A DNA stretch of 64,000 bases from Desulfatiglandales bacterium (GTDB taxonomy: Bacteria > Desulfobacterota > DSM-4660 > Desulfatiglandales > Desulfatiglandaceae). Position 1 is the stretch's first letter, and each line of letters starts with the position of its first letter. The notes beneath the pieces are model-generated. The model did no database searches, was not told the DNA's origin, and saw only the letters and a program-made list of their open reading frames with translations. The DNA lies in assembly GCA_963662465.1 (NCBI GenBank), contig OY759599.1, positions 6,432,001-6,496,000 on the forward strand, read 5' to 3'. Shown here one piece after another: positions 17,980 through 63,884 of the stretch. The position numbers were made by a program, and so were the translations under genes.

Positions 17980-19122
17980 TTACCAGAGTTTTCTGGGATT
18001 CAGAGCTAGCTTCAGCGGCGCCAGAAATGCGAAATAATTTAGAAAAATGATACTTCTAAAAATTCTGGTAAATTTGGATAGTAACCTGAATCGCCCTTTC
18101 ATGGGAGGTAGAAATGAAATCAGAAAAAAGAGCGCAACGGTTGCGAGAAAAAGGTAAGAATAAACATCTTCTAATTTCAATGCGACAAATAGAAGTGTAA
18201 TCAGGCAATATGGAATTAACAGCCTGAAAATTTTATGGCTCATGAATCTTATCCATAACGGATTCTTCAATGGATTCAGAAGCGCTGGTTCCAAAAAAAG
18301 CAACTGCCAGTTGCCGGCAAGAGTCCTTATTTTTCTTTTCTTTTCCAAATCAAGGGTATTTGAAACAACATCGTAGGCGATTGCTTTGTTTTCAAAAACG
18401 GTCCTGTATCCCAGCATGCACACATGCATCGGAACCAGCACGTCATCCAAGAGTGTTTGAACCGGAAGCGGTCGAAACAGCTTTTTTCTGATAGCGTATA
18501 TGGCCCCCGTGGCGCCCGGCACGGAACCCGTGGCGCTCTCAAGTTTTCTTAGCCATTTCTCAAAGCGCCAGTAAGCTCCCATTTCGGATTGTATTGAACT
18601 TCCAGGCGTTTCTTCAAAAACCAGTTCTCCGCTTACACATCCCACTTTCCGGTCACCGAAATTTTTGACCAGTTCTTTAATGGCGTTATCGTCAAATCGC
18701 TGTCTGCAATCCGCGAAAACAACAATATCGCCGGTGGCGGAAGCCACACCCGTATTTATGCAAAAAGGTTTTCCAAGAGAAGGCTCGTGAGAATGCATTC
18801 TTAAAAAGCCTTTCGTCAAACCGTCGGTTTCATGTATAATTGTTTTCACGATATCATCAGTTGCGTCCATAGAACCATCGGATACAATAATTATCTCCAG
18901 TTTTTCTTTTGGATAATCCTGGTTCATTATGTTGCGTATGCGTCGCTCTATGTTTTTCGCTTCATTTCGAGCTGCAATGACAATGGATACGCGAGGGAAA
19001 TCTTCCATATGCCCGTATGAAATCGGATATTTTTTAAATACGGATTTAATGTAGAGCCCCAAAGGGTAGCCCAGATAGGTATAAAAAATGAGGAATAGCA
19101 GTATCCAGAAAAGGAATTCCAT
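17980..19122 (-). CDS. GT2-family membrane glycosyltransferase
   Basis: VSIVIAARNE, SDGSMD, GATGAIYAIR, LLDD; terminal TM segments. Confidence 0.9.
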   Translation of the reverse strand: MEFLFWILLFLIFYTYLGYPLGLYIKSVFKKYPISYGHMEDFPRVSIVIAARNEAKNIERRIRNIMNQDYPKEKLEIIIVSDGSMDATDDIVKTIIHETDGLTKGFLRMHSHEPSLGKPFCINTGVASATGDIVVFADCRQRFDDNAIKELVKNFGDRKVGCVSGELVFEETPGSSIQSEMGAYWRFEKWLRKLESATGSVPGATGAIYAIRKKLFRPLPVQTLLDDVLVPMHVCMLGYRTVFENKAIAYDVVSNTLDLEKKRKIRTLAGNWQLLFLEPALLNPLKNPLWIRFMSHKIFRLLIPYCLITLLFVALKLEDVYSYLFLATVALFFLISFLPPMKGRFRLLSKFTRIFRSIIFLNYFAFLAPLKLALNPRKLW

Positions 19123-19425
19123 TTTTTCTTAAGTTCGGGCTTATCTTGGCCCCAATAGAACAGCTCTGACCCGATATCTTTGATTACAATTATGTTCCCT
19201 TATCGTATCTGTTTTCATGGCTCCGCTTGGTGGGTTACGAAATACTCCAAATCGCATCCCATTTTTATCAGATAAATTGAGGGTAGTACCCGTTTGCAAA
19301 TTGATGCATATTACGCCGAACTCTATACTAGTCAGGCGTAAAATGCAACGCAGACAATGAAATTTTCAGCGGGAATTTAAGCAGGCTGCTCAGAAAAAAA
19401 CGGTTTCCTGATCTAAATATCATTG

Positions 19426-19455
19426 TTGCCATTTATAGGTCGATGTTGTTATAAT
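19426..19455 (+). promoter_or_regulatory. Sigma70-type promoter for the export operon
   Basis: TTGCCA-N18-TATAAT with extended -10 TG. Confidence 0.55.
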
Positions 19456-19512
19456 ACTAGAGATGCTGGGTTTAAGCCTGATATATTGAAACAGAAAAAG
19501 GGTTTATAAACG

Positions 19513-21978
19513 ATGAAAAGATCCATTGTTCTGAGTATGTGGCAATTATGGCTTATTTTGTTTTTTTTTACATCGACTGTTTATGCGGATTACGGGTTGA
19601 TGCTTGGTTCTTTTAAGGATCAGGCTAATGCACAAAAATATTTGAATGAGTTCCAAAATGGAAACAAGGTTTCGACAGAGAATGCCTTTATCGAAAACAT
19701 ACAGATGCTCGGAAAAGGCATTTGGTACAGGGTCTGTTTGGGACCCTTTGTCAGCAGGGAGGATGCTGTAAAAAAACAGATTTTTCTTCAATCCAGGGGG
19801 CATGACAGCGTTGTTGTTTCCATAAATGCGCCTGAAATACGCCTCTCATCGGGAAAATCTCTTGAATCTTCCCCCCAACCTCTTTCATTAATACCATCCG
19901 AGCCGGATGCTGCTCCCTTGAAAAATGACCCGCCGTTGATTGCCGCTGACGCTTCAGGACCCAAGGATGTCCATGCCGGGACCGCAACGTCATTGCCTGT
20001 TGATGGATCATCACATTTGCCCGAGAGAGAAGACAGCGTTTCCACGAGTGAATCGACACTACAATCGAATACCCATGAGGGACAGACGGCTTCAACGGGA
20101 TCACAGGCAAATTCGATGATTGTATATCCGGGGGACATCCTGAATATCGAAGTCCCCACCCAGAAACAGATGAGTCAAGATTATGACGTTGATCCCGAGG
20201 GTAGGATATTTATGATGTCGGTCGGGGAAATCAGGATTGGCGGTCTTGATCTTTCTTTGATTCAGAAGAAAATTACAGTCCTTCTGAAGCAGCTTATTCC
20301 CAAAGAAGAAAAACCGACCGTAACGCTTGTTGGCAGAATGCGGTATATCAATATCAGAGGCGGGGTCAATTACCCGGGTTGGTACCGCGTTTCAGCAGTA
20401 TCTAACCTGGATGATCTGGTGGAAATGGCGGGTGGCCTTGTTGCGGGAGCGGATTTTTCGGAAATCAAAATCAAACGTCCCACAAAGACCGGGTTCCGGG
20501 ATATAAACGCCAGAGGTCGGATTTCCCTGGAACCAAATGATGTCCTGATGGTGCCCACGCCCCAAAAATATGAGAGAAAGATTGACAGCGGGGATCTTTT
20601 GTTTATCAACATTCCTGAAAGAGCAAGTGGTGAACCAGGTTTATCCGAGATAGAAAGAAAGGTGACGCAAAACAAGATTGAGGTTGATAAATCCGGCTAC
20701 ATCTACATTCCGGACTATGGGCACATTTATGTCAAAAATTTACTGACAACAGAAGTATCCAAGATTATTACAAACCGGCTTCCAAAATACCTTGCTCGTT
20801 CCGCAAAAGTGCATGTGAATATCATAGAGAAAAAGCACTATGTGCAGATCGGCGGCCATGTGGCAACACCGGGGTGGTATAGTGTTCCGGAATCGGATAA
20901 TATTCAGGCGGCCCTGAGTGTGGCGGGCGGCGCCGTGGACGGCGCCATTTTGAGCAAGGTGACCGTAACCCGTAAATGGGGGGGGCAAACTCGAGAGGTA
21001 AGGGTCAATTTATACCAGTTTACCGTTACGGGAGATGTCAGGCTGCTTACTCCTGTCCACGAAGATGATTCTATTTTTGTGCCCATTTCGGCGGCTTTCG
21101 GAGACGTGAAACGTACGCTCAGCAACTGGCAACCGCCCCCATCGAAGTTGGAGGAGGATACGGGCAGCAAGGTTCGCATCTTTGGTGCTGTGGGCAGTCC
21201 CGGAGTTTATGAACCCAAGGAGGACATGAATATCCTCGATTTGTTGATCCTGGCCGGCGGAAACAGGGATGACGCCGATTTGGCCAAAACAATGCTGATT
21301 CGGGAAAACAAGACTCAAATTTATGACCTGAATGCTTTGATACTTGGAAGCACACAGGGTAAAGCGAAGATACCGAAGGTCCAAAACGGGGATGCCGTTT
21401 ATGTCGCCTTTGTAAAAAAGGCAAGCTATGAGAAACAGGACCCTAAGGAAATGATAAGGATTTTCGGAGCGGTTAAAAAGCCGGGCATTTATGAGGTCTC
21501 TCCAGATATGAACATCATAGACGTATTTTCACTGGCGAACGGGCAGACTTATGATGCTGATTTGAAAAAGGTGAATATCGCAAGGGCAAACGGTACATTT
21601 GAAATGTTGGATTTGCAGGAATATTTTGACGCGAAACTATCCGACCCAACGAAACTACCGATAATCAATGCCAGCGATACCGTATATGTTCATTATCTGC
21701 AACATCTGAGTTTGGAGAAAAAGGAGCCTGTTTACCTTTTGGGCAAAGTCAAATCTCCAGGGCAGTATCAATTGGCAACTGGGGGCATGACGGTTTATCA
21801 AATGATTGCATATGCCGGTGGCCTCGATGAGTGGGCTGATACTGAAAACATCATGGTTATTCGGATGGTTAGTGGAAGACAGCGCAATATTCACTATAAT
21901 CTCCGAAAGGCGCTTTCGGGAAAATATCCTGAGCTGAATATTAGATTGAGATCTTTTGATACCATTTATGTGCCATAA
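19513..21978 (+). CDS. Polysaccharide export (OPX/Wza-like) protein with N-terminal SPOR domain and multiple SLBB repeats
   Basis: Signal peptide; LGSFKDQANA..WYRVCLGPF.SREDA (SPOR); two Poly_export-like segments; repeated GxVxxPGxY..AGG SLBB units; ends DTIYVP. Confidence 0.85.
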   Translation: MKRSIVLSMWQLWLILFFFTSTVYADYGLMLGSFKDQANAQKYLNEFQNGNKVSTENAFIENIQMLGKGIWYRVCLGPFVSREDAVKKQIFLQSRGHDSVVVSINAPEIRLSSGKSLESSPQPLSLIPSEPDAAPLKNDPPLIAADASGPKDVHAGTATSLPVDGSSHLPEREDSVSTSESTLQSNTHEGQTASTGSQANSMIVYPGDILNIEVPTQKQMSQDYDVDPEGRIFMMSVGEIRIGGLDLSLIQKKITVLLKQLIPKEEKPTVTLVGRMRYINIRGGVNYPGWYRVSAVSNLDDLVEMAGGLVAGADFSEIKIKRPTKTGFRDINARGRISLEPNDVLMVPTPQKYERKIDSGDLLFINIPERASGEPGLSEIERKVTQNKIEVDKSGYIYIPDYGHIYVKNLLTTEVSKIITNRLPKYLARSAKVHVNIIEKKHYVQIGGHVATPGWYSVPESDNIQAALSVAGGAVDGAILSKVTVTRKWGGQTREVRVNLYQFTVTGDVRLLTPVHEDDSIFVPISAAFGDVKRTLSNWQPPPSKLEEDTGSKVRIFGAVGSPGVYEPKEDMNILDLLILAGGNRDDADLAKTMLIRENKTQIYDLNALILGSTQGKAKIPKVQNGDAVYVAFVKKASYEKQDPKEMIRIFGAVKKPGIYEVSPDMNIIDVFSLANGQTYDADLKKVNIARANGTFEMLDLQEYFDAKLSDPTKLPIINASDTVYVHYLQHLSLEKKEPVYLLGKVKSPGQYQLATGGMTVYQMIAYAGGLDEWADTENIMVIRMVSGRQRNIHYNLRKALSGKYPELNIRLRSFDTIYVP

Positions 21979-22015
21979 AGCGGGATACTCGCAACCCAAA
22001 GATGAAGTTGTAGGA

Positions 22016-22048
22016 GTCAGTTGTCAGTTGTCAGTTATCAGTTGTCAG
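22016..22048 (+). repeat. (GTCAGTT)n heptamer array, left arm
   Basis: GTCAGTTGTCAGTTGTCAGTTATCAGTTGTCAG. Confidence 0.9.
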
Positions 22049-22062
22049 CGCTGGAGGCTATT

Positions 22063-22408
22063 TTGAAATTTGAGGATTTGGAAGTATGGAAGAGGTCTTC
22101 ACGATTATGTGCAGATTTGTATAAACATTTTCAAGATATTAAAGATTTTGGGTTTCGTGATCAGATTACCCGGTCTGCTTTATCAATACCAAGCACGTGC
22201 AGAAGGTGTGGAACGAGACTCAAAAAAAGATTTTGCCAGGTTTCTGCAATATTCAAAAGGTTCTTGTGGAGAATTAAGAACACAAATTTATATTGGTATT
22301 GATATTGATTATATTGAACCAGCAGTTGGCAAAAAATGGATTCAGGAAACAAAAGAACTCTCGGCGATGCTCGTAGGTCTTAGCAAATCCCTAAAGAAGA
22401 TAAATTAG
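22063..22408 (+). pseudogene. Four-helix-bundle protein (23S-IVS/TIGR02436-like), frameshifted
   Basis: KFEDLEVWK..RDQITRSALSIPS / AEG.ER.SKKDFARFL.YSKGSCGELRTQ; frameshift at ~22195-22198, where SNIAEG is expected; GGAGG RBS before TTG. Confidence 0.88.
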
Positions 22409-22423
22409 TATCGATATGCTTTT

Positions 22424-22444
22424 ACTGACAACTGACAACTGATA
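22424..22444 (-). repeat. Heptamer array, right arm (inverted relative to 22016-22048)
   Basis: ACTGACAACTGACAACTGATA. Confidence 0.88.
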
Positions 22445-22580
22445 CCATATAACGATTTTCTTGTTTTTTGTGACAGAAAACTCAAGTGATAGGCTATAAA
22501 GGCGCAGAGGCGCAGAGAACAGAGGAAAGATGACGGAGAATGGATGGGCAGTTTGCAGCATAGTGGCTTAGGGGAACTTG

Positions 22581-22817
22581 ATGCCAACGATTAAGGATAT
22601 CAGTGGGGCTTACCGGTTTTTCTTTTACAGCTTCGACTGTAACGAACCAAAGCATGTCCACGTACAACGAGAGAAATTTACATGCAAGTTTTGGCTTAAG
22701 CCAGTTGCTCTCAGCAAGAATTATGGCTTTCCTCCAAAGGAATTAAGAAATATTTTCAAAATTGTAAGGTCCAATCAAAACAGAATTGAGGAGGCCTGGA
22801 ATGAACATTGCGATTAA
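22581..22817 (+). CDS. DUF4160-family protein (putative toxin-antitoxin component)
   Basis: MPTI...YRFFFYS..EPKHVHV...KFWL. Confidence 0.85.
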   Translation: MPTIKDISGAYRFFFYSFDCNEPKHVHVQREKFTCKFWLKPVALSKNYGFPPKELRNIFKIVRSNQNRIEEAWNEHCD

Positions 22818-23061
22818 TCAAATAGAACCGAGGCTATTGGATGTTCGGGTCTCTGAAGAGGAAATCATCGTTTTTCTTGCTGATGGGCGAACAGTAAGTG
22901 TCCCTCTGGCTTGGTCTTGGCGACTATCAGAAGCATCACAGAAGGCACGCCAAAACTTTCAAATAATCGGAGATGGGCAAGGTATCCACTGGCCGGATGT
23001 GGACGAAGATATAAGCGTTGTGGGTATGCTGGGCGGTTTACCGGCCCGGCGACCATCATAA
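22801..23061 (+). CDS. DUF2442-family protein (putative toxin-antitoxin component)
   Basis: LADGRTVSVPLAW.RL..A; GIHWPDVDEDISV; overlaps the upstream gene. Confidence 0.85.
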   Translation: MNIAINQIEPRLLDVRVSEEEIIVFLADGRTVSVPLAWSWRLSEASQKARQNFQIIGDGQGIHWPDVDEDISVVGMLGGLPARRPS

Positions 23062-23228
23062 GGGGCATAGGTCAGGAAAAGACAGAGAAAAGATGCCTTG
23101 GGGGGCAAAGCTCCTTGCCTGATCTCATATAAAACGGGCGAACCAAAATACTGCGTAATCTTGCGCAATTATTTTTTGCTGAGGCCCTGAAAAGCCAGAA
23201 AGCTCAAAGCATGGAAGCTTCAAAGCTT

Positions 23229-23361
23229 GACAGTCCAGTAAAAAGTCCCCAAGCCCGTCACCCCCGCGAAAGCGGGGGTCCATAAACCCCTGATGTTACT
23301 GGATTCCCGCGTTCGCGGGAATGACGAAAACGGGTCATTGCTGACTTTTTACGAGTTTGTC
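23229..23361. mobile_element. 133-bp MITE-like element carrying two inverted REP-like hairpins
   Basis: Terminal IRs GACAGTCCAGTAAAAAGTC / GACTTTTTACGAGTTTGTC (15/19 match); AAAGCTT on both flanks (23222-23228, 23362-23368); internal hairpins at 23257-23282 and 23300-23325. Confidence 0.8.
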
Positions 23362-23383
23362 AAAGCTTGAAGCGAAGTCAAAA

Positions 23384-25267
23384 ATGAACAGGAATGATGT
23401 TGCGATAGATTTGAAAAAGAATTCAAAAAATAATTCTGCCGTCATATCAGGCGTTGTGGCTTCCCTCTTATTGCCCATCGTGTTCTCTTCTTTTTTTTTT
23501 CTTATCGTCAATCAACTTACTTCTGCATTCGGTGAACAGAGCCAAGCCAACGTGGGTCGAGTGTGTCTTTATTCACTGTTACAGAGATATCCCATTGCTT
23601 CAAGTGAAATACAATCGCGTCTATCCGGCGGACAACGAAACACACGTTCAAACAGGCTGATCGAAGTGCCTGAACATACGTTCATTCAAAAATCCACGAT
23701 AAAGATCAATGATCTCATCGTTTCTCCTGCTTGGGGCGTAAAGATGCAAGGCCGGTCTGTCAACCCTGTATATACTCCCATCCACGCCCATGAAAATGTG
23801 AGAGATGTCGAAGTCAGGACCGGGCGTGATAATGTGGAAGAGAAATTTTACACTGCTTTCAACCTGACCAAAACCCGCAAAGATCCTATGAAATCTCTAT
23901 CTGCTAAGATACCGCCACGCGAAAATCCGTCCGGCGGCGATAATCTATTGGAAGGCGCCGGGGGCTCACTTGGCGATTTTTTTGAGGGTGGAACTGTTTC
24001 CACACCTTCAAAAGGGGCGTATCGAATTGAAGTCTCCCCCAGGATAAGTATAAAAGAAGAATATGATGACAATATTACATTGCTCAATAAAAACCCGATT
24101 GGGGATTATTCAACAACGGTTTCTCCCGGCCTAAAGATAAGTGCTGATTCGGGCAGCAATGGTTTAGACCTGGATTACGAATTTGGTTGGGTTAAATACC
24201 ATAAAAGCACCAAAAATGATTATATCCAACATCTCGGAACTTTAGGATTATGGCAGAAAATCGGCAGCCACTTAACTTTTCGACTGACAGACGCCTATAT
24301 TAAGTCAAATGATTATCTTGCAGATCTTAATCAATTCCCAGTGACCCAAAGGGTTGCTAATACGCTAAGTGCTTATCAAAGAAATGACGCCAAGGCGGTT
24401 TTGGATTTCCAATTTGGCCCCAAAAACCATTTTGTGGTCGGATATATTTACAATATTTTGGATAATGATGATCCGTCCTTAGAAGATGCAAGGGAGCAGG
24501 GTCCATCTGCAGCGCTATCATACTGGTTCACCCAGAAAGATGGACTGGATTTGAGCTATGAGAATCTCAGGTACATTTATGATCAGCCTGATTATTATAA
24601 TAATTGGAAAGACCTGAACGCACATAATATGCGGGGCGCCTATGTTCACCAATTTGGAGTTCGTTCAACCGGTAGCCTTTATTATGCACTTTCCATACGG
24701 AAATCTATCGATTTCCCCATACAATATGAGATCCATGATGTCGGGGCAGGTTTTGACCACCGCTTTTCATCTTCTACCTCTTTATCATTGGGTTTGGGAT
24801 ATTATAAACCAACCGGCGATACTTCATTGCCCGGAACACCCGCTTTGAACCCTGGCGTAACTTCTTTGATTGAGCTGAGAAAAAGTTTTCAACACGGGAG
24901 CGTTTCTTTAGGTGTCACGTCTGGATGGGATGATGGTTTATTGGAGGTGATACCCAGGGGGTTTACAAAGTTTGGGGGGGCGTTTGGTCGCTTTGATTAT
25001 GAACCGATTGAAAATGTGAGTGTTTTTGGTGGGGTAACATATCGAAAAAATAGATATGCGAATGAAGAAATCGACATTCTTCTGAATCAGGCAACGGAAG
25101 ACGAAACGTATCAAGGTCGGTGCGGTGTAGATTGGAGGCTTTGTCGATGGTTTACGTTGGGATTGCTTTATACTTATACGAACCGGATAAGTCCTGATCC
25201 TGAAGATGAGTTTGTGGATAACAGAATTGGGTTGATTTTTACGGCGGAAAAACCTTTTAAATGGTAG
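23384..25267 (+). CDS. Outer-membrane beta-barrel protein associated with polysaccharide export
   Basis: PRISIKEEYDDNI, alternating aromatic strands, C-terminal DNRIGLIF; start 23384 because the ORF-track start lies inside the MITE. Confidence 0.75.
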   Translation: MNRNDVAIDLKKNSKNNSAVISGVVASLLLPIVFSSFFFLIVNQLTSAFGEQSQANVGRVCLYSLLQRYPIASSEIQSRLSGGQRNTRSNRLIEVPEHTFIQKSTIKINDLIVSPAWGVKMQGRSVNPVYTPIHAHENVRDVEVRTGRDNVEEKFYTAFNLTKTRKDPMKSLSAKIPPRENPSGGDNLLEGAGGSLGDFFEGGTVSTPSKGAYRIEVSPRISIKEEYDDNITLLNKNPIGDYSTTVSPGLKISADSGSNGLDLDYEFGWVKYHKSTKNDYIQHLGTLGLWQKIGSHLTFRLTDAYIKSNDYLADLNQFPVTQRVANTLSAYQRNDAKAVLDFQFGPKNHFVVGYIYNILDNDDPSLEDAREQGPSAALSYWFTQKDGLDLSYENLRYIYDQPDYYNNWKDLNAHNMRGAYVHQFGVRSTGSLYYALSIRKSIDFPIQYEIHDVGAGFDHRFSSSTSLSLGLGYYKPTGDTSLPGTPALNPGVTSLIELRKSFQHGSVSLGVTSGWDDGLLEVIPRGFTKFGGAFGRFDYEPIENVSVFGGVTYRKNRYANEEIDILLNQATEDETYQGRCGVDWRLCRWFTLGLLYTYTNRISPDPEDEFVDNRIGLIFTAEKPFKW

Positions 25268-25348
25268 GGGTTGTGGGAATCATTTCCGGTGGGGGAAATT
25301 GATTGAACTTAAAGCCTGGCCAAAGCTATTCGGAATTTTTGAAAAGAT

Positions 25349-25666
25349 GAATATCGAATATCGAACAAGGAATGTAGAATGACGAAGGGGAAGTCAGAGT
25401 TTGATCTTGAAGACCGTTTGATTGATTTCGCTGTGCGTATTATTCGAACATCAGAATCTTTGCCGAAAAGTAAAGTTGGGAAACACATTGCTGGTCAACT
25501 TATTCGTATCAGAGCCGACCTGATAAAACCAGCATCGAAACTCGAAGCTTTGATTGATGAAAGTGACCAACTGATTTCAATTTTTGTAAAAAGTGTAAGC
25601 ACCGCCATGCAAAATTTAAAGAAAACTTCATAATTCGACATTCCCTTGTTCAATATTCTGCGGTTC
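25349..25666. repeat. ~40-bp inverted arms built from GAATATC-like heptamers bracketing the gene
   Basis: Left (25349-25387) GAATATCGAATATCGAACAAGGAATGTAGAATGACGAAG; reverse complement of right (25626-25666) GAACCGCAGAATATTGAACAAGGGAATGTCGAATTATGAAG. Confidence 0.85.
25379..25633 (+). pseudogene. Four-helix-bundle protein with in-frame central deletion
   Basis: FDLEDRLIDFAVRII..LPK..HIAGQLIR joined directly to ADLIK..LIDESDQLISIFVKS; the usual SGTS..NY.EA..S..DF.HK..KE..ET core is missing. Confidence 0.8.
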
Positions 25667-25891
25667 AAAAACATATATAATTCCAAATAATTACAGGTCT
25701 TCCTGATAAATTTTTCGGTAAAGAGTTGCATGGAAAAGCACGATTGTATAGAATCGTAAACATAGCGTGAGGTTAAAGGCTGCCAATTCTAAGCTGAGAG
25801 GAAGAATCGCCCCATGATGAAAACAACCGGCATCGCCTGTTTGGCCTGATGCTCATGGATTATTTTTCTGACCGGGGCTTTCGAGTTCCCA

Positions 25892-26360
25892 GATGGCCAC
25901 TTCAAAATCCCCCACTTGTGGCCACCCCAAAATCCCCCACCTGTGAAGGTGGTCGTGTAGGATCTTGACCGTGGCAATGGAAAGATCTTCAGCGACAAAA
26001 CGGCTACACTTTATTCTTTTTTCTTCCCTATGGCAAGCTTTTCTGCAGCCTCCTTTAGCTTGTAGCTTTTTCCTTCAAATTTGAGCAAATCGCCTCGGTG
26101 GAGCAACCTGTCAAGGATCGCAGAGGATGCGGCATTGTCTCTGAGCAGTTTACCCCAGTCCTCCACCGGACGGTTCGGTTTGATGTTATGAGTGTTCTTT
26201 TTCTTTTGGAATAACGATTCAGTATGATATCAAGAAGATCATCTGCCGCATGTTCAGGGACCCTTTTTCTCAGGAAAAGATCATCTATTATCAGCAAGTC
26301 TGCTTCTGAAAAAAGCTTTGTTATTTTTTTTGTCTTCCCTGTTTGGGCAGCTTCTGAGAG
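25892..26360 (-). mobile_element. istB: IS21-family remnant: istB 3' fragment plus end repeats
   Basis: DLLIIDDL..L.DIILNRY...TLITSN, frameshift, then DRLLHRG..LKFEGKSYKL; tandem TGGCCACnnCAAAATCCCCCAC repeats at 25894-25941. Confidence 0.8.
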
Positions 26361-26859
26361 TGGACTCGCAAATTGATGTAAACGTTGCCAACTTATATGG
26401 TGGAGTAGCGAAGAAAAAATCGGAAGTGCTTCTCGGTCTAATGAAAAGTGTTTTTTTAAGGCATGGTCATGAGCTTGAATAATAAGTGATCTTTATGGCA
26501 TCAATGGATGTAAATTTTTCAGGCTGGAAGAGACACTTTGCCGAGGTTATGTTTGAACACAATTTAAAAGATTATAAGGATGGACAGGATTCCAATATCC
26601 TGTTCATCTGAAAAATCCTGTTTATCGTGGTTAAGACAGTGAGGTGATCAACCATGGTGGTTAAACTTTGCCCCTACAATCCTGGCCGAAACGATGATCA
26701 AGGCCTTTTCAATTATGAAATTGGAAACTAAAGAATTGATTCTGGGTTCTTTACTATTGGTCCATTTCTTGATAAGAAGAGTTTCGATTCTGCCGAATTC
26801 CGGGCATGATGAAAAAAAACCCCGGGGCAGGGACCATCTAACAGAAAGGATGAAACAAA

Positions 26860-27201
26860 ATGGCATCAAAGGACAAGGAATCGAGATTGGGGCAAATGAG
26901 CTACTGGGAAGAACAGTTGAACCAGCGGCTTGCCCTGTTGGCTGAAAAAGGCGATGCACCTGAAAAAATCGCCAAGGACACCGAAGTTAAAAAAATCCGC
27001 GCCAAAATAAGGGAAACCCGCGATCGGCTCAAAGCCATCGAGGAAAGAGAAAAAAAGCTGGAGGATATGGCCAAGGCCAAGGTTGAAAAAGCGGCCATGC
27101 CCAAAAAATCCAAAAAGAAGAAAAAGGAAGAGGAATCGCCTGAAGAAAGTAAACGTCAGCAGAAAAAGAAAAAGAAAAAAGAAAAGAAACCCAAGGATTA
27201 A
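26860..27201 (+). CDS. Hypothetical Lys/Glu-rich coiled-coil protein
   Basis: 113-aa ORF after AGGA; charged helical sequence with poly-Lys tail. Confidence 0.7.
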   Translation: MASKDKESRLGQMSYWEEQLNQRLALLAEKGDAPEKIAKDTEVKKIRAKIRETRDRLKAIEEREKKLEDMAKAKVEKAAMPKKSKKKKKEEESPEESKRQQKKKKKKEKKPKD

Positions 27202-27788
27202 TGTTTTCCTGGGATTTTCAGGCCTTTTTTAAAGCGCTCGGTTTCAGCCTCGTCCATTTTTAGCAGGGATTCGGGGCTGAACTTTAACTTGCAAAACAGT
27301 TTTTCTTCCACCTGCCAACATCGCTTGAAATTCAATTTTATGGCCTTGCACAGCTGTTCCTGATCTCGCCCGTAACGTTTGAGGATGTAATCCTGCCGTT
27401 CTTCGAGGGTAACGATTTTGTCATGCTTTACCCGTTTATCCGCGTAAAACACTACCACCTTTTCAGAATTGGTTCCGTTTAGATGGTAGTCCTTCAACTT
27501 GACATGTTCCCCCACGATATCGGCGATTTCATCAAGACCGTTTTCGATACAGATCTGTTTCCCTAGTTCAGCATGGTTCTCCCCTGATGTCAATGAAGGC
27601 GTTTTTCCGATATCATGCATCAGCGCCCCGACCGTTGTTTTTAAGACGGAGATATCCATGTTGACGTCCCGAAGTCCTTCCGCAATCATACGGGCCACCC
27701 TTGCCACAACCACTGAATGGGCTTTGATGTGCTCAAGCATATGATATTGATCCATGAAATGGTAGCAGTCTCTGATGGATGGGATCAT
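27198..27788 (-). CDS. HD-domain (HDIG) phosphohydrolase
   Basis: HS..VA, ALMHDIGK, HAELG, YADKRV. Confidence 0.88.
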   Translation of the reverse strand: MIPSIRDCYHFMDQYHMLEHIKAHSVVVARVARMIAEGLRDVNMDISVLKTTVGALMHDIGKTPSLTSGENHAELGKQICIENGLDEIADIVGEHVKLKDYHLNGTNSEKVVVFYADKRVKHDKIVTLEERQDYILKRYGRDQEQLCKAIKLNFKRCWQVEEKLFCKLKFSPESLLKMDEAETERFKKGLKIPGKH

Positions 27789-28048
27789 GATTGACCTCTT
27801 CTTTTATTTTTAATTACGGGCCTGATCATTACCAGGTTCACCTCGGTCATTCAAGCAAAAATCAAAAAATACACCACAGACATTGAGCGCACAAAGATGA
27901 CCACGGTAATAGCTTGGAATCAAATGGTTTCCTAAGTATTCTCGGTGTTTTGGTGGAATTTCGCTCCGCCAAACCAGGGAAACCCTTCGAATTTTCCTCA
28001 CGGAACAGCGCCCAAACATGAACGTTATTCATTCAGGGGGGATTGGTC

Positions 28049-32496: not shown

Positions 32497-33712
32497 AAAG
32501 GAGATTAATCCGGAAAACATCAAAAAAGCGGACATGGTGGTTTGTATCCCTTCCTACAGAGAAGCCGATTCCATCGGCTACCCGACCACCCAGGCCGACG
32601 AAGGGTTACAAAAATATTTTGGTGAGTACAGCGCCGTCATTATCAATTGCGATAACAACTCTCCTGACCATACCCGGGAGACCTTTCTCGAGACGGCGAC
32701 TAAAGCGCCAAAAATTTATCTTTCCACTGAACCCGGTCTTAAAGGAAAAGGGAATAACTTTAGAAACCTGTTTCAAAAGGTGGTGGACCTTAAGGCCAAG
32801 GCCGTGGTGGTGGTGGACGCTGATCTCAAGAGCATCACCCCTGAGTGGATCAAGCACCTGGGTGAACCGTTGTTCAGCGGATTTTCATATGTGGCGCCCC
32901 TGTACATTCGGCATAAATATGATGGGACCATTACCAACGGCATTGCCTACCCCATGACAAGATCCCTTTATGGAAGACGGGTCCGTCAGCCCATCGGCGG
33001 GGATTTTGGATTCAGCGGAAAACTGGCGCCGTTGTACCTTGAAAGCAAGACCTGGAGCGAAGCGGTCGCCAATTTCGGAATCGACATCTGGATGACCACC
33101 CTTGCCATAAATCACAAGGCTCAGATCTGCCAGGCGTTCATGGGGCGACCCAAAATTCATCGTACCAAGGATCCGGGATCCGACCTGGGACCCATGTTTC
33201 GACAGGTGGTCGGCACCATTTTCTCCATGATGAAAGAGTTTGCACCCTTCTGGCTCAAGGTGAAATACAGCCGTCCTACCGCCATTTACGGGTTTGGCCT
33301 GGGCGAAACGGAAATGCCGCCGGAGGTTTCTGTGAACCGGGAAAATCTGTTAAACCAGTTCCATGAGGGATTTGGCAAATACAGCGGCATCTGGAAAACC
33401 ATCCTTTCGTCCGATGTTTACCAAAAGCTCCTGGAGATCAAGGATATGAGAGAGCAGGAGTTCAACTTTCCCACTGATTTATGGGCACGGCTGCTTTTCG
33501 ATACCGCCGCTTCATATGGGGAGGTGGGAATTAACGAGGACGACACCATGGATTCCCTGATCCCTCTCTATTTTGGACGTACGCTCTCTTTTGTTAGAAG
33601 GACGGAAAAAATGTCCATCAAACAGGCGGAAGAGGCCATTGAAGATGACTGCACTACCTTTGAGATGGCGAAACCTTATCTTCTTCAGCGCTGGAAAGAG
33701 AGACGTTGGTGA
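32480..33712 (+). CDS. Glucosylglycerate/mannosylglycerate synthase-like single-step glycosyltransferase
   Basis: IPSY.EAD.I, GKG, DADL.SITPEW, RHKYDGTITN, RQPIGGDF, FGIDIW; GAGGAG RBS. Confidence 0.7.
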   Translation: MPDRFEKEINPENIKKADMVVCIPSYREADSIGYPTTQADEGLQKYFGEYSAVIINCDNNSPDHTRETFLETATKAPKIYLSTEPGLKGKGNNFRNLFQKVVDLKAKAVVVVDADLKSITPEWIKHLGEPLFSGFSYVAPLYIRHKYDGTITNGIAYPMTRSLYGRRVRQPIGGDFGFSGKLAPLYLESKTWSEAVANFGIDIWMTTLAINHKAQICQAFMGRPKIHRTKDPGSDLGPMFRQVVGTIFSMMKEFAPFWLKVKYSRPTAIYGFGLGETEMPPEVSVNRENLLNQFHEGFGKYSGIWKTILSSDVYQKLLEIKDMREQEFNFPTDLWARLLFDTAASYGEVGINEDDTMDSLIPLYFGRTLSFVRRTEKMSIKQAEEAIEDDCTTFEMAKPYLLQRWKERRW

Positions 33713-33773
33713 AGAGTGAAGCGTAAAGAGTGAAGAGGTGGGGGCTGGTGCTTTTCACTCTTCACTTTTCACC
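33709..33773. repeat. Inverted (GTGAAGA)n / (TTTTCAC)n heptamer arms forming a hairpin between convergent genes
   Basis: GTGAAGAGTGAAGCGTAAAGAGTGAAGAG, 13-nt spacer, CTTTTCACTCTTCACTTTTCAC. Confidence 0.85.
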
Positions 33774-33779
33774 TTTCTT

Positions 33780-41430: not shown

Positions 41431-41492
41431 TGAAAGTGACAAGTGAGAAGTGACGCGTAAAGCTAAGAGGGTTCCGCTTGTCACTTGTCACT
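41431..41492. repeat. Inverted (AGTGACA)n heptamer arms between divergent genes
   Basis: TGAAAGTGACAAGTGAGAAGTGAC...CTTGTCACTTGTCACT. Confidence 0.8.
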
Positions 41493-42277: not shown

Positions 42278-42312
42278 TGAAAGGTGAAAGCTGAAAGCTG
42301 AAGGGTGAAAGA
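42278..42312 (+). repeat. 5x (TGAAAGS) heptamer array
   Basis: TGAAAGG TGAAAGC TGAAAGC TGAAGGG TGAAAGA. Confidence 0.85.
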
Positions 42313-60427: not shown

Positions 60428-60522
60428 ACTTTTTTTTAAGTTTTAAGTTTTAGGTTAATGTGCGAAAATCCAGACCGCATATGTTCCCTGGGTGTACGTT
60501 TTGAGCCGGAGCGAAGTAAAAA

Positions 60523-62772: not shown

Positions 62773-63172
62773 GAAGCCCGACGGGTTTACCCTTCTGGAG
62801 GTCATGATCGCCGTTGCGGTGCTGGCGATTGCCCTGGTGGCCGTGCTGGGGCTCCAGTCCCGGACCCTGACCCTGGCCGCGGAATCCCGGTTCCATACTA
62901 CGGCCGCCCTGCTGGCGCAGGGGAAAATGGCTGAGATGGCGGTGGCCGATTTAAAGGCTTTGTCCTCGGATTCAGGTGATTTCGGCGATGAATTCTTAGG
63001 GTACGCCTGGCGCCTGTCCGTTCAGGATGCCGACTTGCCGGGCCTTGAAAAGGTCAAAGGCCGGCTCAAATGCATTGACCTGGAAGTGACCTGTGGCGAG
63101 GGGGATATCTATCGATATGATCTCAGGCTGTACCGGTTTTTTCCGGTGGAAGCTGTGACAAGTGAAAAGTGA
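62765..63172 (+). CDS. gspI: Minor pseudopilin I
   Basis: GFTLLEVMIAVAVLAIAL; A.LLA..KM. Confidence 0.82.
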   Translation: MRKKPDGFTLLEVMIAVAVLAIALVAVLGLQSRTLTLAAESRFHTTAALLAQGKMAEMAVADLKALSSDSGDFGDEFLGYAWRLSVQDADLPGLEKVKGRLKCIDLEVTCGEGDIYRYDLRLYRFFPVEAVTSEK

Positions 63173-63210
63173 AGAGTGAAGAGTGAAAAGTGAAGAGTGA
63201 AGAGTGAAAA
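63155..63210 (+). repeat. 8x (GTGAARA) heptamer array across the gspI-gspJ junction
   Basis: GTGACAA GTGAAAA GTGAAGA GTGAAGA GTGAAAA GTGAAGA GTGAAGA GTGAAAA. Confidence 0.92.
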
Positions 63211-63884
63211 GTACCGAAGACAGGGGGTTTACGCTGCTTGAGATTCTGTTGGCGATTTTCATGCTGACCGTTGTGGTGTCGACGGTTTTCGGTGCTTTTT
63301 CAGGAACTTTCAAGGTCGTGAACGAAACGGAATCCCAAGGGGAAATTTATGCCATGGCACGGGTAGCGCTGGAAAGGATTTCCGAAGATCTGGCATCGGT
63401 CTATGGGGGTGATTCGTCGAAAACGCCGGCATCTGAAGCGGTCGCCCCACAACAACGGTTTCTTTTTGTGGGAGAAAACCATACCGTGGATGGGCAGAGC
63501 GCCGATACCCTCCGGTTTATGTCCTATGCGCATGTGTCTTTCAAGGCCGGTCGGCAGGACGAGGGGCCGGCGGAGATTGTTTATTACCTGCAGCGCAATG
63601 AAGATACGGGGGAACAGGCCCTGTACCGCTCCGATACCCTGGATTATCTGGAAGCACCGGAAAACGGACAGGGAGGGTTCCTGCTCTGTGATCGTCTCAA
63701 ATGGGTCGATTTTATCTATTATGACGGCAACGGCGAGGCCCGCAATGCCTGGGACACCACGGAGAACACCGGAAAAGAGGCACTCCCTTCACGGGTTGAG
63801 ATCTCCATGGGATTTGAAAATGCCCTTGACCCGGAAAACCCGCTGCAATTCATGACCGGCGTGGCGTTGCCGCCGGTTGAATGA
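63204..63884 (+). CDS. gspJ: Minor pseudopilin J
   Basis: GFTLLEILLAI; LPSRVEI near the C-terminus. Confidence 0.82.
   Translation: MKSTEDRGFTLLEILLAIFMLTVVVSTVFGAFSGTFKVVNETESQGEIYAMARVALERISEDLASVYGGDSSKTPASEAVAPQQRFLFVGENHTVDGQSADTLRFMSYAHVSFKAGRQDEGPAEIVYYLQRNEDTGEQALYRSDTLDYLEAPENGQGGFLLCDRLKWVDFIYYDGNGEARNAWDTTENTGKEALPSRVEISMGFENALDPENPLQFMTGVALPPVE

Follow-up and report, generated by a model that had tools for sequence, protein, structure and literature searches.

In Coxiella burnetii, the 23S rRNA contains an intervening sequence (IVS) that encodes S23p, a member of the TIGR02436/PF05635 family, and that is enclosed by a 28-bp stem carrying GACAGAT heptamers and cut by RNase III (PMC4990558, in its accessible part). 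Heptamer repeats have also been described as gene-less convergent GGGAATC pairs in Xanthomonas (PMC4692102), as TAACTGA arrays in Beggiatoaceae (PMC4679880) and as arrays in Geobacter (PMC2700814); as far as the accessible parts of these three reports go, the repeats are not tied to a four-helix-bundle gene and no mechanism of spread is given. Short, multi-copy intergenic hairpins that are gained, lost or replaced at orthologous sites and moved in trans are known as MITEs (miniature inverted-repeat transposable elements) and as REPINs, which derive their name from repetitive extragenic palindromic (REP) sequences (PMC3337134 and 10.1101/119735, in the parts available). Homology to Avd, the accessory protein of diversity-generating retroelements (DGRs), is mentioned in the accessible part of PMC10053308. 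Here we analyse a window of 64,000 nucleotides from a Desulfatiglandales bacterium (contig OY759599.1, positions 6,432,001 to 6,496,000), in which two genes of the four-helix-bundle family are each bracketed by inverted arms composed wholly or partly of heptamers. We judge it somewhat more probable than the contrary that both belong, as broken copies, to a widespread cassette of gene and heptamer arms, apparently a small mobile DNA moved by a host enzyme acting in trans. The package, which is likely to be small mobile DNA of a kind not described before, is real, specific and apparently unpublished as a general system; in the main texts of open papers, without supplements, we found heptamer arms linked to the family in rRNA but not elsewhere. 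The two cassettes comprise the following features (positions are those of the window).

21975-21978, + strand: left core ATAA, which includes the export gene's stop codon and is recognized from the sequence and the family core (C)TAA
21980-21992, + strand: leader hairpin GCGGG-ATA-CTCGC, a variant of the family left end
22016-22048, + strand: left arm of cassette 1, (GTCAGTT) x4.7, G/T-rich
22063-22408, + strand: four-helix-bundle gene 1 (TIGR02436/PF05635, FEDL type), frameshifted, with GGAGG at 22053-22057 and a putative TTG start
22424-22444, + strand: right arm of cassette 1, (ACTGACA) x2.7-3, C/A-rich; the tandem array proper (x2.7) is 22424-22442
22457-22499, + strand: T-rich conserved tail and right core ATAA (22496-22499); the tail profile matches 46 places in the genome
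25315-25325, + strand: approximate left end motif CCTGGCCAAAG of cassette 2, common to gene-less family members
25349-25387, + strand: left arm of cassette 2, GAATATC-based, covering the start codon of gene 2
25379-25633, + strand: four-helix-bundle gene 2 (DLEDRL type), with an in-frame deletion of 42 amino acids
25626-25666, + strand: right arm of cassette 2, covering the stop codon of gene 2; a family-conserved tail continues to about 25700

Both arm pairs lie where the original prediction had placed them. The arms of cassette 1 are complementary at 19/19 positions and those of cassette 2 (25356-25387 against 25626-25658) at 28/33 columns, with GAATATC x2.4 at 25349-25365 in an arm that is heptameric only in part; the inverted pairing proposed for cassette 2 was confirmed. 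Arm scores were 38 and 39, values reached by 0/1000 shuffles in either case (maxima 26 and 29), and 2/251 background windows of the same geometry in the 64 kb scored at least 28. Profile matches confirmed the family but not the integrity of the genes. Gene 1 matched PF05635/TIGR02436 in two frames (model positions 1-47 and 47-105, both halves above both model cut-offs) on either side of the point near 22195 where 2 bp have been lost. Gene 2 (84 aa) matched no Pfam or NCBIfam model; it aligned at E 5e-31 with an intact relative that itself passes the family model (E 1.1e-22), and the 42 residues it is missing include a conserved central motif. Run X1, possibly the source sample, yielded contigs for 22073-25375 and 25346-25740 that differ from the window at 0 positions and have 0 gaps; as these agree across both gene breaks, an assembly error is unlikely. 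Cassette 1 reaches beyond its arms: it spans 21979-22499, has a repeated ATAA at both borders and constitutes a family member of 522 bp with ATAAAG as its border at 21975 and 22496 (inspection of the sequence shows the hexamer of 21975-21980 recurring at 22496-22501). Placement of both cassettes inside the export operon held for cassette 1. Cassette 2 is preceded by the porin gene of the cluster and followed by a remnant resembling an insertion sequence (IS), and so stands at the cluster end.

The likeness to the Coxiella IVS extends to the protein family, complementary stem-forming ends, tandem heptamers (those of the IVS, in its 5' end, being GACAGAT) and gene decay; unlike that IVS, as described in the accessible part of the source, the cassettes in the window are intergenic in protein operons and have dispersed gene-less copies and filled and empty sites. 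The flanks of the window cassettes are protein genes, and rRNA occurred in the flanks of 0/135 sampled cassette loci; the window cassettes share the packaging of an rRNA IVS but are not rRNA IVSs. The genome holding the window (G000, 8.16 Mb) has three tandem 23S rRNA genes with equal scores at G000:C1:6654817-6669038, each of about 3050 nt and with no large IVS. The heptamers published for Xanthomonas, Beggiatoaceae and Geobacter resemble ours, in the parts of those papers available, in forming intergenic arrays, often of about four units and often in convergent pairs, and the Beggiatoaceae TAACTGA is a unit variant of the right arms of the cassette 1 family.

Across relatives, arms follow the gene family. 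Counting an inverted repeat score of at least 28 as a pass, inverted arms were detected at 24/30 of the best TIGR02436 loci in a phylum sample of 201 genomes (106 of them with the family), as against 0/30 of the best DUF2442 loci, taken as a control. A broad sample, the best 80 of 597 GTDB stretches, gave 62/80 loci with arms in at least 12 phyla by record title; these are top matches to one subfamily, not a random draw, and kin among them are not independent. Viral loci gave 21/27 (5/32 having been dropped as near-duplicates), shifted control intervals 2/185, and copies displayed from the genus 10/15. The best arm period was 7 in 77/83 passing loci, the left arm had G>C in 71/83, and the median number of units per arm was 4.7 and 4.6. 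Heptamer units vary widely, although AG is present in 63/75 as compared with 43 expected by shuffling. Units matched at 6/7 positions or more in 83% of the pairs with >70% protein identity but in 1-2% of those with <50%, and nearest protein neighbours under different taxon labels had a unit similarity of 4.47 against a null mean of 3.84 (maximum 4.28); the accompanying protein tree was a quick build with 9/72 branches starred, used for display. The enrichment of arms, the variety of units and their tracking of the protein lineage all bear out the original prediction that it is the architecture, and not the sequence, that is conserved. At the four-helix genes L319, L325 and L328 (G007) and L315 (G004) the flanking repeat arrays are direct, not inverted.

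These data bear on one alternative, that the arms belong to the common heptamer repeats of this genome, simple-sequence or REP-like, and flank the genes because such debris gathers in polysaccharide loci. Period-7 arrays are indeed abundant in the host genome (466, versus 26, 27 and 49 for periods 6, 8 and 9), and most lack a partner. Genomes with the gene gave 18 loosely defined and 5 strict arrays and those without it 10 and 3 (400 kb each, 10 versus 7 genomes), too ambiguous a comparison to establish a link at genome level, in which the group without was set at E 1e-15 and includes two members with weaker matches, and in which 7/10 of its arrays came from one genome lacking a convincing gene match. 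The empty DUF2442 control, the rarity of passes in shifted intervals and the tracking of the protein by its heptamer across taxon labels nevertheless largely refute coincidence, which we regard as very improbable.

Within the host genome, 126/603 loosely defined arrays are paired with an inverted array no more than 1.5 kb away, left arms having G>C in 63/67 and right arms C>G in 49/54. Most of its 13 PF05635 matches have one or both arms by eye, two fusion-type genes being without, and 19 loci apiece resemble each window cassette, mostly as arms with the gene reduced or gone. The two contig ends (G000:C1:86000-101400 and 8147900-8161100) bear near-identical array patterns and four-helix genes, with a left-arm unit of about 105 bp amplified many times, a situation that reflects either true duplication or assembly overlap.

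Where the gene is intact it appears to be maintained by selection. Three pairs of intact genes with measurable synonymous divergence (dS 0.67, 1.96 and 1.82) had nonsynonymous values (dN) of 0.04, 0.13 and 0.09, and judged from the resulting dN/dS of about 0.05-0.07 intact genes are under strong purifying selection. A structure model of a family member (the first sequence of alignment A1, a relative of the window protein; predicted local distance difference test score, pLDDT, 95.6) was matched by Foldseek to 2GSC with a template modeling (TM) score of 0.93 and to Avd (4DWL) with 0.82, so that the proposed Avd-like fold is upheld by a predicted structure; the entries of the relatives 2GSC and 2RLD each contain five chains. 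DGR Avd shares the predicted four-helix fold but is 13% identical to the family member, and here neither an adjacent reverse transcriptase (RT) nor a pair of template and variable repeats (TR/VR) was found. No RT was seen on inspection of the open reading frame (ORF) list of the window between 14 and 34 kb, and no long direct repeat was present in 21500-26200, a search for a TR/VR pair that went no wider. At L307 (G063:C1:2048598-2048900) an Avd-like gene without heptamer arms lies directly upstream of the start of an RT-like ORF, in a likely DGR.

Gain and loss of the cassettes as DNA, which the original prediction had offered as one possibility, is supported by filled and empty orthologous sites. 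In G009 the export gene leads directly into the porin and cassette 1 is absent; G001 has an intact, 96% identical cassette 1 flanked by other genes, at a site whose G000 ortholog is empty. Intact copies of cassette 2 sit at other loci in G007 and G003. A clean empty site for cassette 2 in G009 was considered and rejected: a different gene follows the porin there, which indicates a breakpoint instead. L207 (G004:C1:346710-347100) joins the 5' half of the cassette 2 gene in frame to an unrelated small ORF. Comparison of 1.2 Mb of G010 with G000 (774 kb aligned, mostly 91-97% identical) yielded further filled and empty pairs among 120 insertion or deletion events, 35 of which contain a heptamer array. 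At 4/9 clean events the junctions overlap by 3-4 bp (CTAA, CTA or TAAA/AAA), which may be a target-site duplication or a shared core. The clean junctions fall at short ends outside the arms, and the claim that cassettes come and go through their arms was borne out only in part. In a separate observation, different heptamer elements occupy the same intergenic site in different genomes (L240, L191 and L248 versus G000).

The asymmetric ends of cassette 1 are common to about 45 mostly gene-less elements. Of the 46 tail-profile places in G000, 24 have a leader hairpin within 600 bp and 21 end in ACTA, and the window cassette is the sole member with leader and tail there that has a full-length gene. 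On inspection the family ends consist of an asymmetric leader and tail with no terminal inverted repeats, the inverted arms being internal. One deletion has the same derived junction at 11 fetched loci in 3 genomes, at different G000 sites where these could be mapped, and also in one further G000 copy; because an identical derived junction recurs at unrelated loci, the gene-less form itself was copied. The best reading of the gene-less forms is that they are MITE-like, non-autonomous derivatives of a mobile cassette family. Like MITEs they are multi-copy, non-coding and polymorphic between strains, and they share with MITEs and REPINs the properties given above; they differ, as far as the accessible parts of those sources allow, in having period-7 arms inside asymmetric ends instead of terminal inverted repeats, in the helix-bundle gene that occupies the place of a transposase, and in that no linked RAYT was found.

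The original prediction had also suggested an mRNA intervening sequence, in which the arms are kept for a stem cut by RNase III that loops out the gene and tunes operon expression. Long stems are indeed predicted on the sense strand (z -4.4 and -2.1), as had been foreseen; 442/527 intergenic arrays in G000 lie between co-directional genes, compared with a 64% baseline; the elements favour the sense orientation; and the Coxiella IVS offers a precedent. However, G·U pairs, sought as covariation in support of an RNA stem, gave no signal: arm mismatches allow 107 on the sense and 112 on the antisense strand (p 0.79; per locus 29:36), from which the arm symmetry looks DNA-level. Contigs with an intact gene 1 from relatives occur in four RNA libraries, where DNA carry-over is not excluded; these RNA runs are contigs of relatives with 6-11% of words in common, and contigs cannot show RNA ends. 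The main loop-deletion joints in the RNA libraries (22139-22409 and 22141-22415) are also found in DNA or unlabelled runs. With site turnover between genomes 91-97% identical and both window genes dead, an RNA role is distinctly unlikely to account for the arms, and the mRNA intervening sequence as such was not supported. RNA processing of the cassettes may happen without being the reason for the element's existence.

For a mobile DNA moved in trans, several observations are awkward. No transposase lies between the family leader and tail ends in G000. No clear arms were present at the 20 Y1/IS110 loci inspected (19/30 Y1 matches and the IS110 match), and a screen of the neighbours of 135 loci (a motif screen of 648 neighbour ORFs, with Pfam on 6 candidates) found 1 Y1 gene and no RT. 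Inverted arms are missing from 5/15 genus copies, which have one-sided or direct arrays instead, and 477/603 G000 arrays have no inverted partner within 1.5 kb. Among the clean events 5/9 show no duplication, and in the majority of 23 junction pairs a target segment of about 10-100 bp, at times a different heptamer element, has been replaced. Leader and tail are both missing from the intact G001 copy, so these ends are not general. Elements with a leader also show a sense bias of 17:3, unexpected for plain DNA transposition, and a tally of 50 loci gave 30 same-same against 4 opposite (about four repeat one site and two are long copies). All of these weigh against the mobile cassette as we read it. 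Furthermore, no leader and tail 600-2500 bp apart occur in G000, that is, no autonomous partner with the same ends is found there, and at 13/14 no clear arrays were seen at any of the 20 inspected Y1/IS110 loci.

Two explanations of the sense bias were rejected. The replication-strand bias expected of HUH transposition was not seen (12:16), and target supply does not account for it (CTAA:TTAG 867:897; stops 264:354). The AACAGCT heptamer family shows no sense bias (14:10 and 16:14). A possible source is selection that removes antisense copies, or else a step linked to transcription. The same ends enclose different arms and the G001 copy lacks the ends, which makes arms plus gene and outer ends separable modules.

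On the mobile cassette reading, an enzyme acting in trans would join the element at the (C)TAA core, often a stop codon. With the end features of IS200, IS110 and IS5 as background, an oriented recombinase like those of HUH/IS200 or IS110 would best fit the asymmetric ends. A likeness between the core and integron attC sites or IS608 guide motifs was considered and set aside. Slippage and template switching would keep all units and both arms alike at the DNA level, and the pentameric protein probably binds the arms of its own cassette (median 4.6-4.7 units, with AG at intervals of 7 nt) and helps the element to spread or persist. A long stem would form in the transcript: in rRNA this would be the known RNase III-cut IVS, one landing site of the cassette family, and in mRNA a tolerated by-product.

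The mobility might instead pass through RNA, an Avd-like pentamer binding the cassette stem and recruiting a host RT in trans, the cDNA integrating at CTAA and the arrays arising by repeated templating of one unit. The Avd fold of the family model, a sense bias that tracks transcription and not replication, the 47 RT matches in G000, loop deletions at the stem base, units that all change in concert and the intact gene 1 in RNA libraries, with the caveat given above, are consistent with this route. The lack of an RT beside the 135 loci, the armless Avd-like gene of G063 next to its RT-like ORF, the even G·U counts and the unbiased AACAGCT family argue against it, and we consider it unlikely. 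Group II intron-like RT genes begin just after a leader hairpin at G000:C1:1759177 and just after a four-helix cassette at 7116125-7117714. Returning to the mobile cassette, a stronger and more tentative version, in our estimate fairly unlikely, would make the Avd-like pentamer the element's own mobility factor, reading the array with AG every 7 nt (about five units, one per subunit), recruiting a host recombinase or RT and inserting cassette or gene-less copies in sense at (C)TAA.

The surroundings of the cassettes include the following genes.

Upstream of cassette 1: SLBB/Poly_export gene of the polysaccharide-export cluster
22578-23061, + strand: DUF4160 + DUF2442 gene pair, a neighbour outside the cassette, missing from the orthologous G009 site
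23357-25267, + strand: BBP2-type outer-membrane beta-barrel (porin) of the export cluster, a host gene between the cassettes

The interval separating the two cassettes contains DUF4160, DUF2442, a REP-like palindrome and the BBP2 porin. The segment 22500-23061, with an 8-mer repeat AGGCGCAG followed by the DUF4160 + DUF2442 pair (weak DhiT match), forms a second insertion beside cassette 1. At 23217-23373 a 36-nt inverted repeat of AAAGCTT-like units surrounds the 32-bp REP-like palindrome and is very deep in run X6. The IS-like remnant just past cassette 2 (25888-26297) is multi-copy, with a 25-bp tandem repeat and no Pfam match; we take its ORF fragment to be IstB-like. Farther on, gene-less heptamer hairpins, the G-rich arm leading, occur at 33709-33777 (GTGAAGA)/(CTTTTCA) and 41434-41492 (AAGTGAC)/(CTTGTCA), and single heptamer arrays at 42278-42311, 60434-60456 and 63155-63212. 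The array at 42278 stops just ahead of a ribosome-binding site and ATG, and the 8-unit array at 63155 continues into a prepilin-like 'GFTLLEIL' reading frame. Rfam gave no match in 18000-28000, and the scan for promoters and terminators was near chance level.

The cassette ties together the function of a widespread protein family, the origin of ORF-bearing rRNA IVSs and abundant heptamer repeats, for whose spread MacGregor (2015) saw no mechanism (PMC4679880, in its accessible part). All three become testable questions, since there is a protein whose predicted ligand is the repeat of its arms, together with defined ends and a target core. The window locus contributes a recent 96%-identical copy elsewhere, a deletion derivative that can be traced and junctions seen in a closely related genome, both local copies being dead. 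Were the pentamer itself the mobility factor, the elements it mobilises would be the common source of ORF-bearing rRNA IVSs and of numerous heptamer repeats in bacteria that lack an explanation, and would stand to DGR Avd as a selfish relative or as its ancestor.

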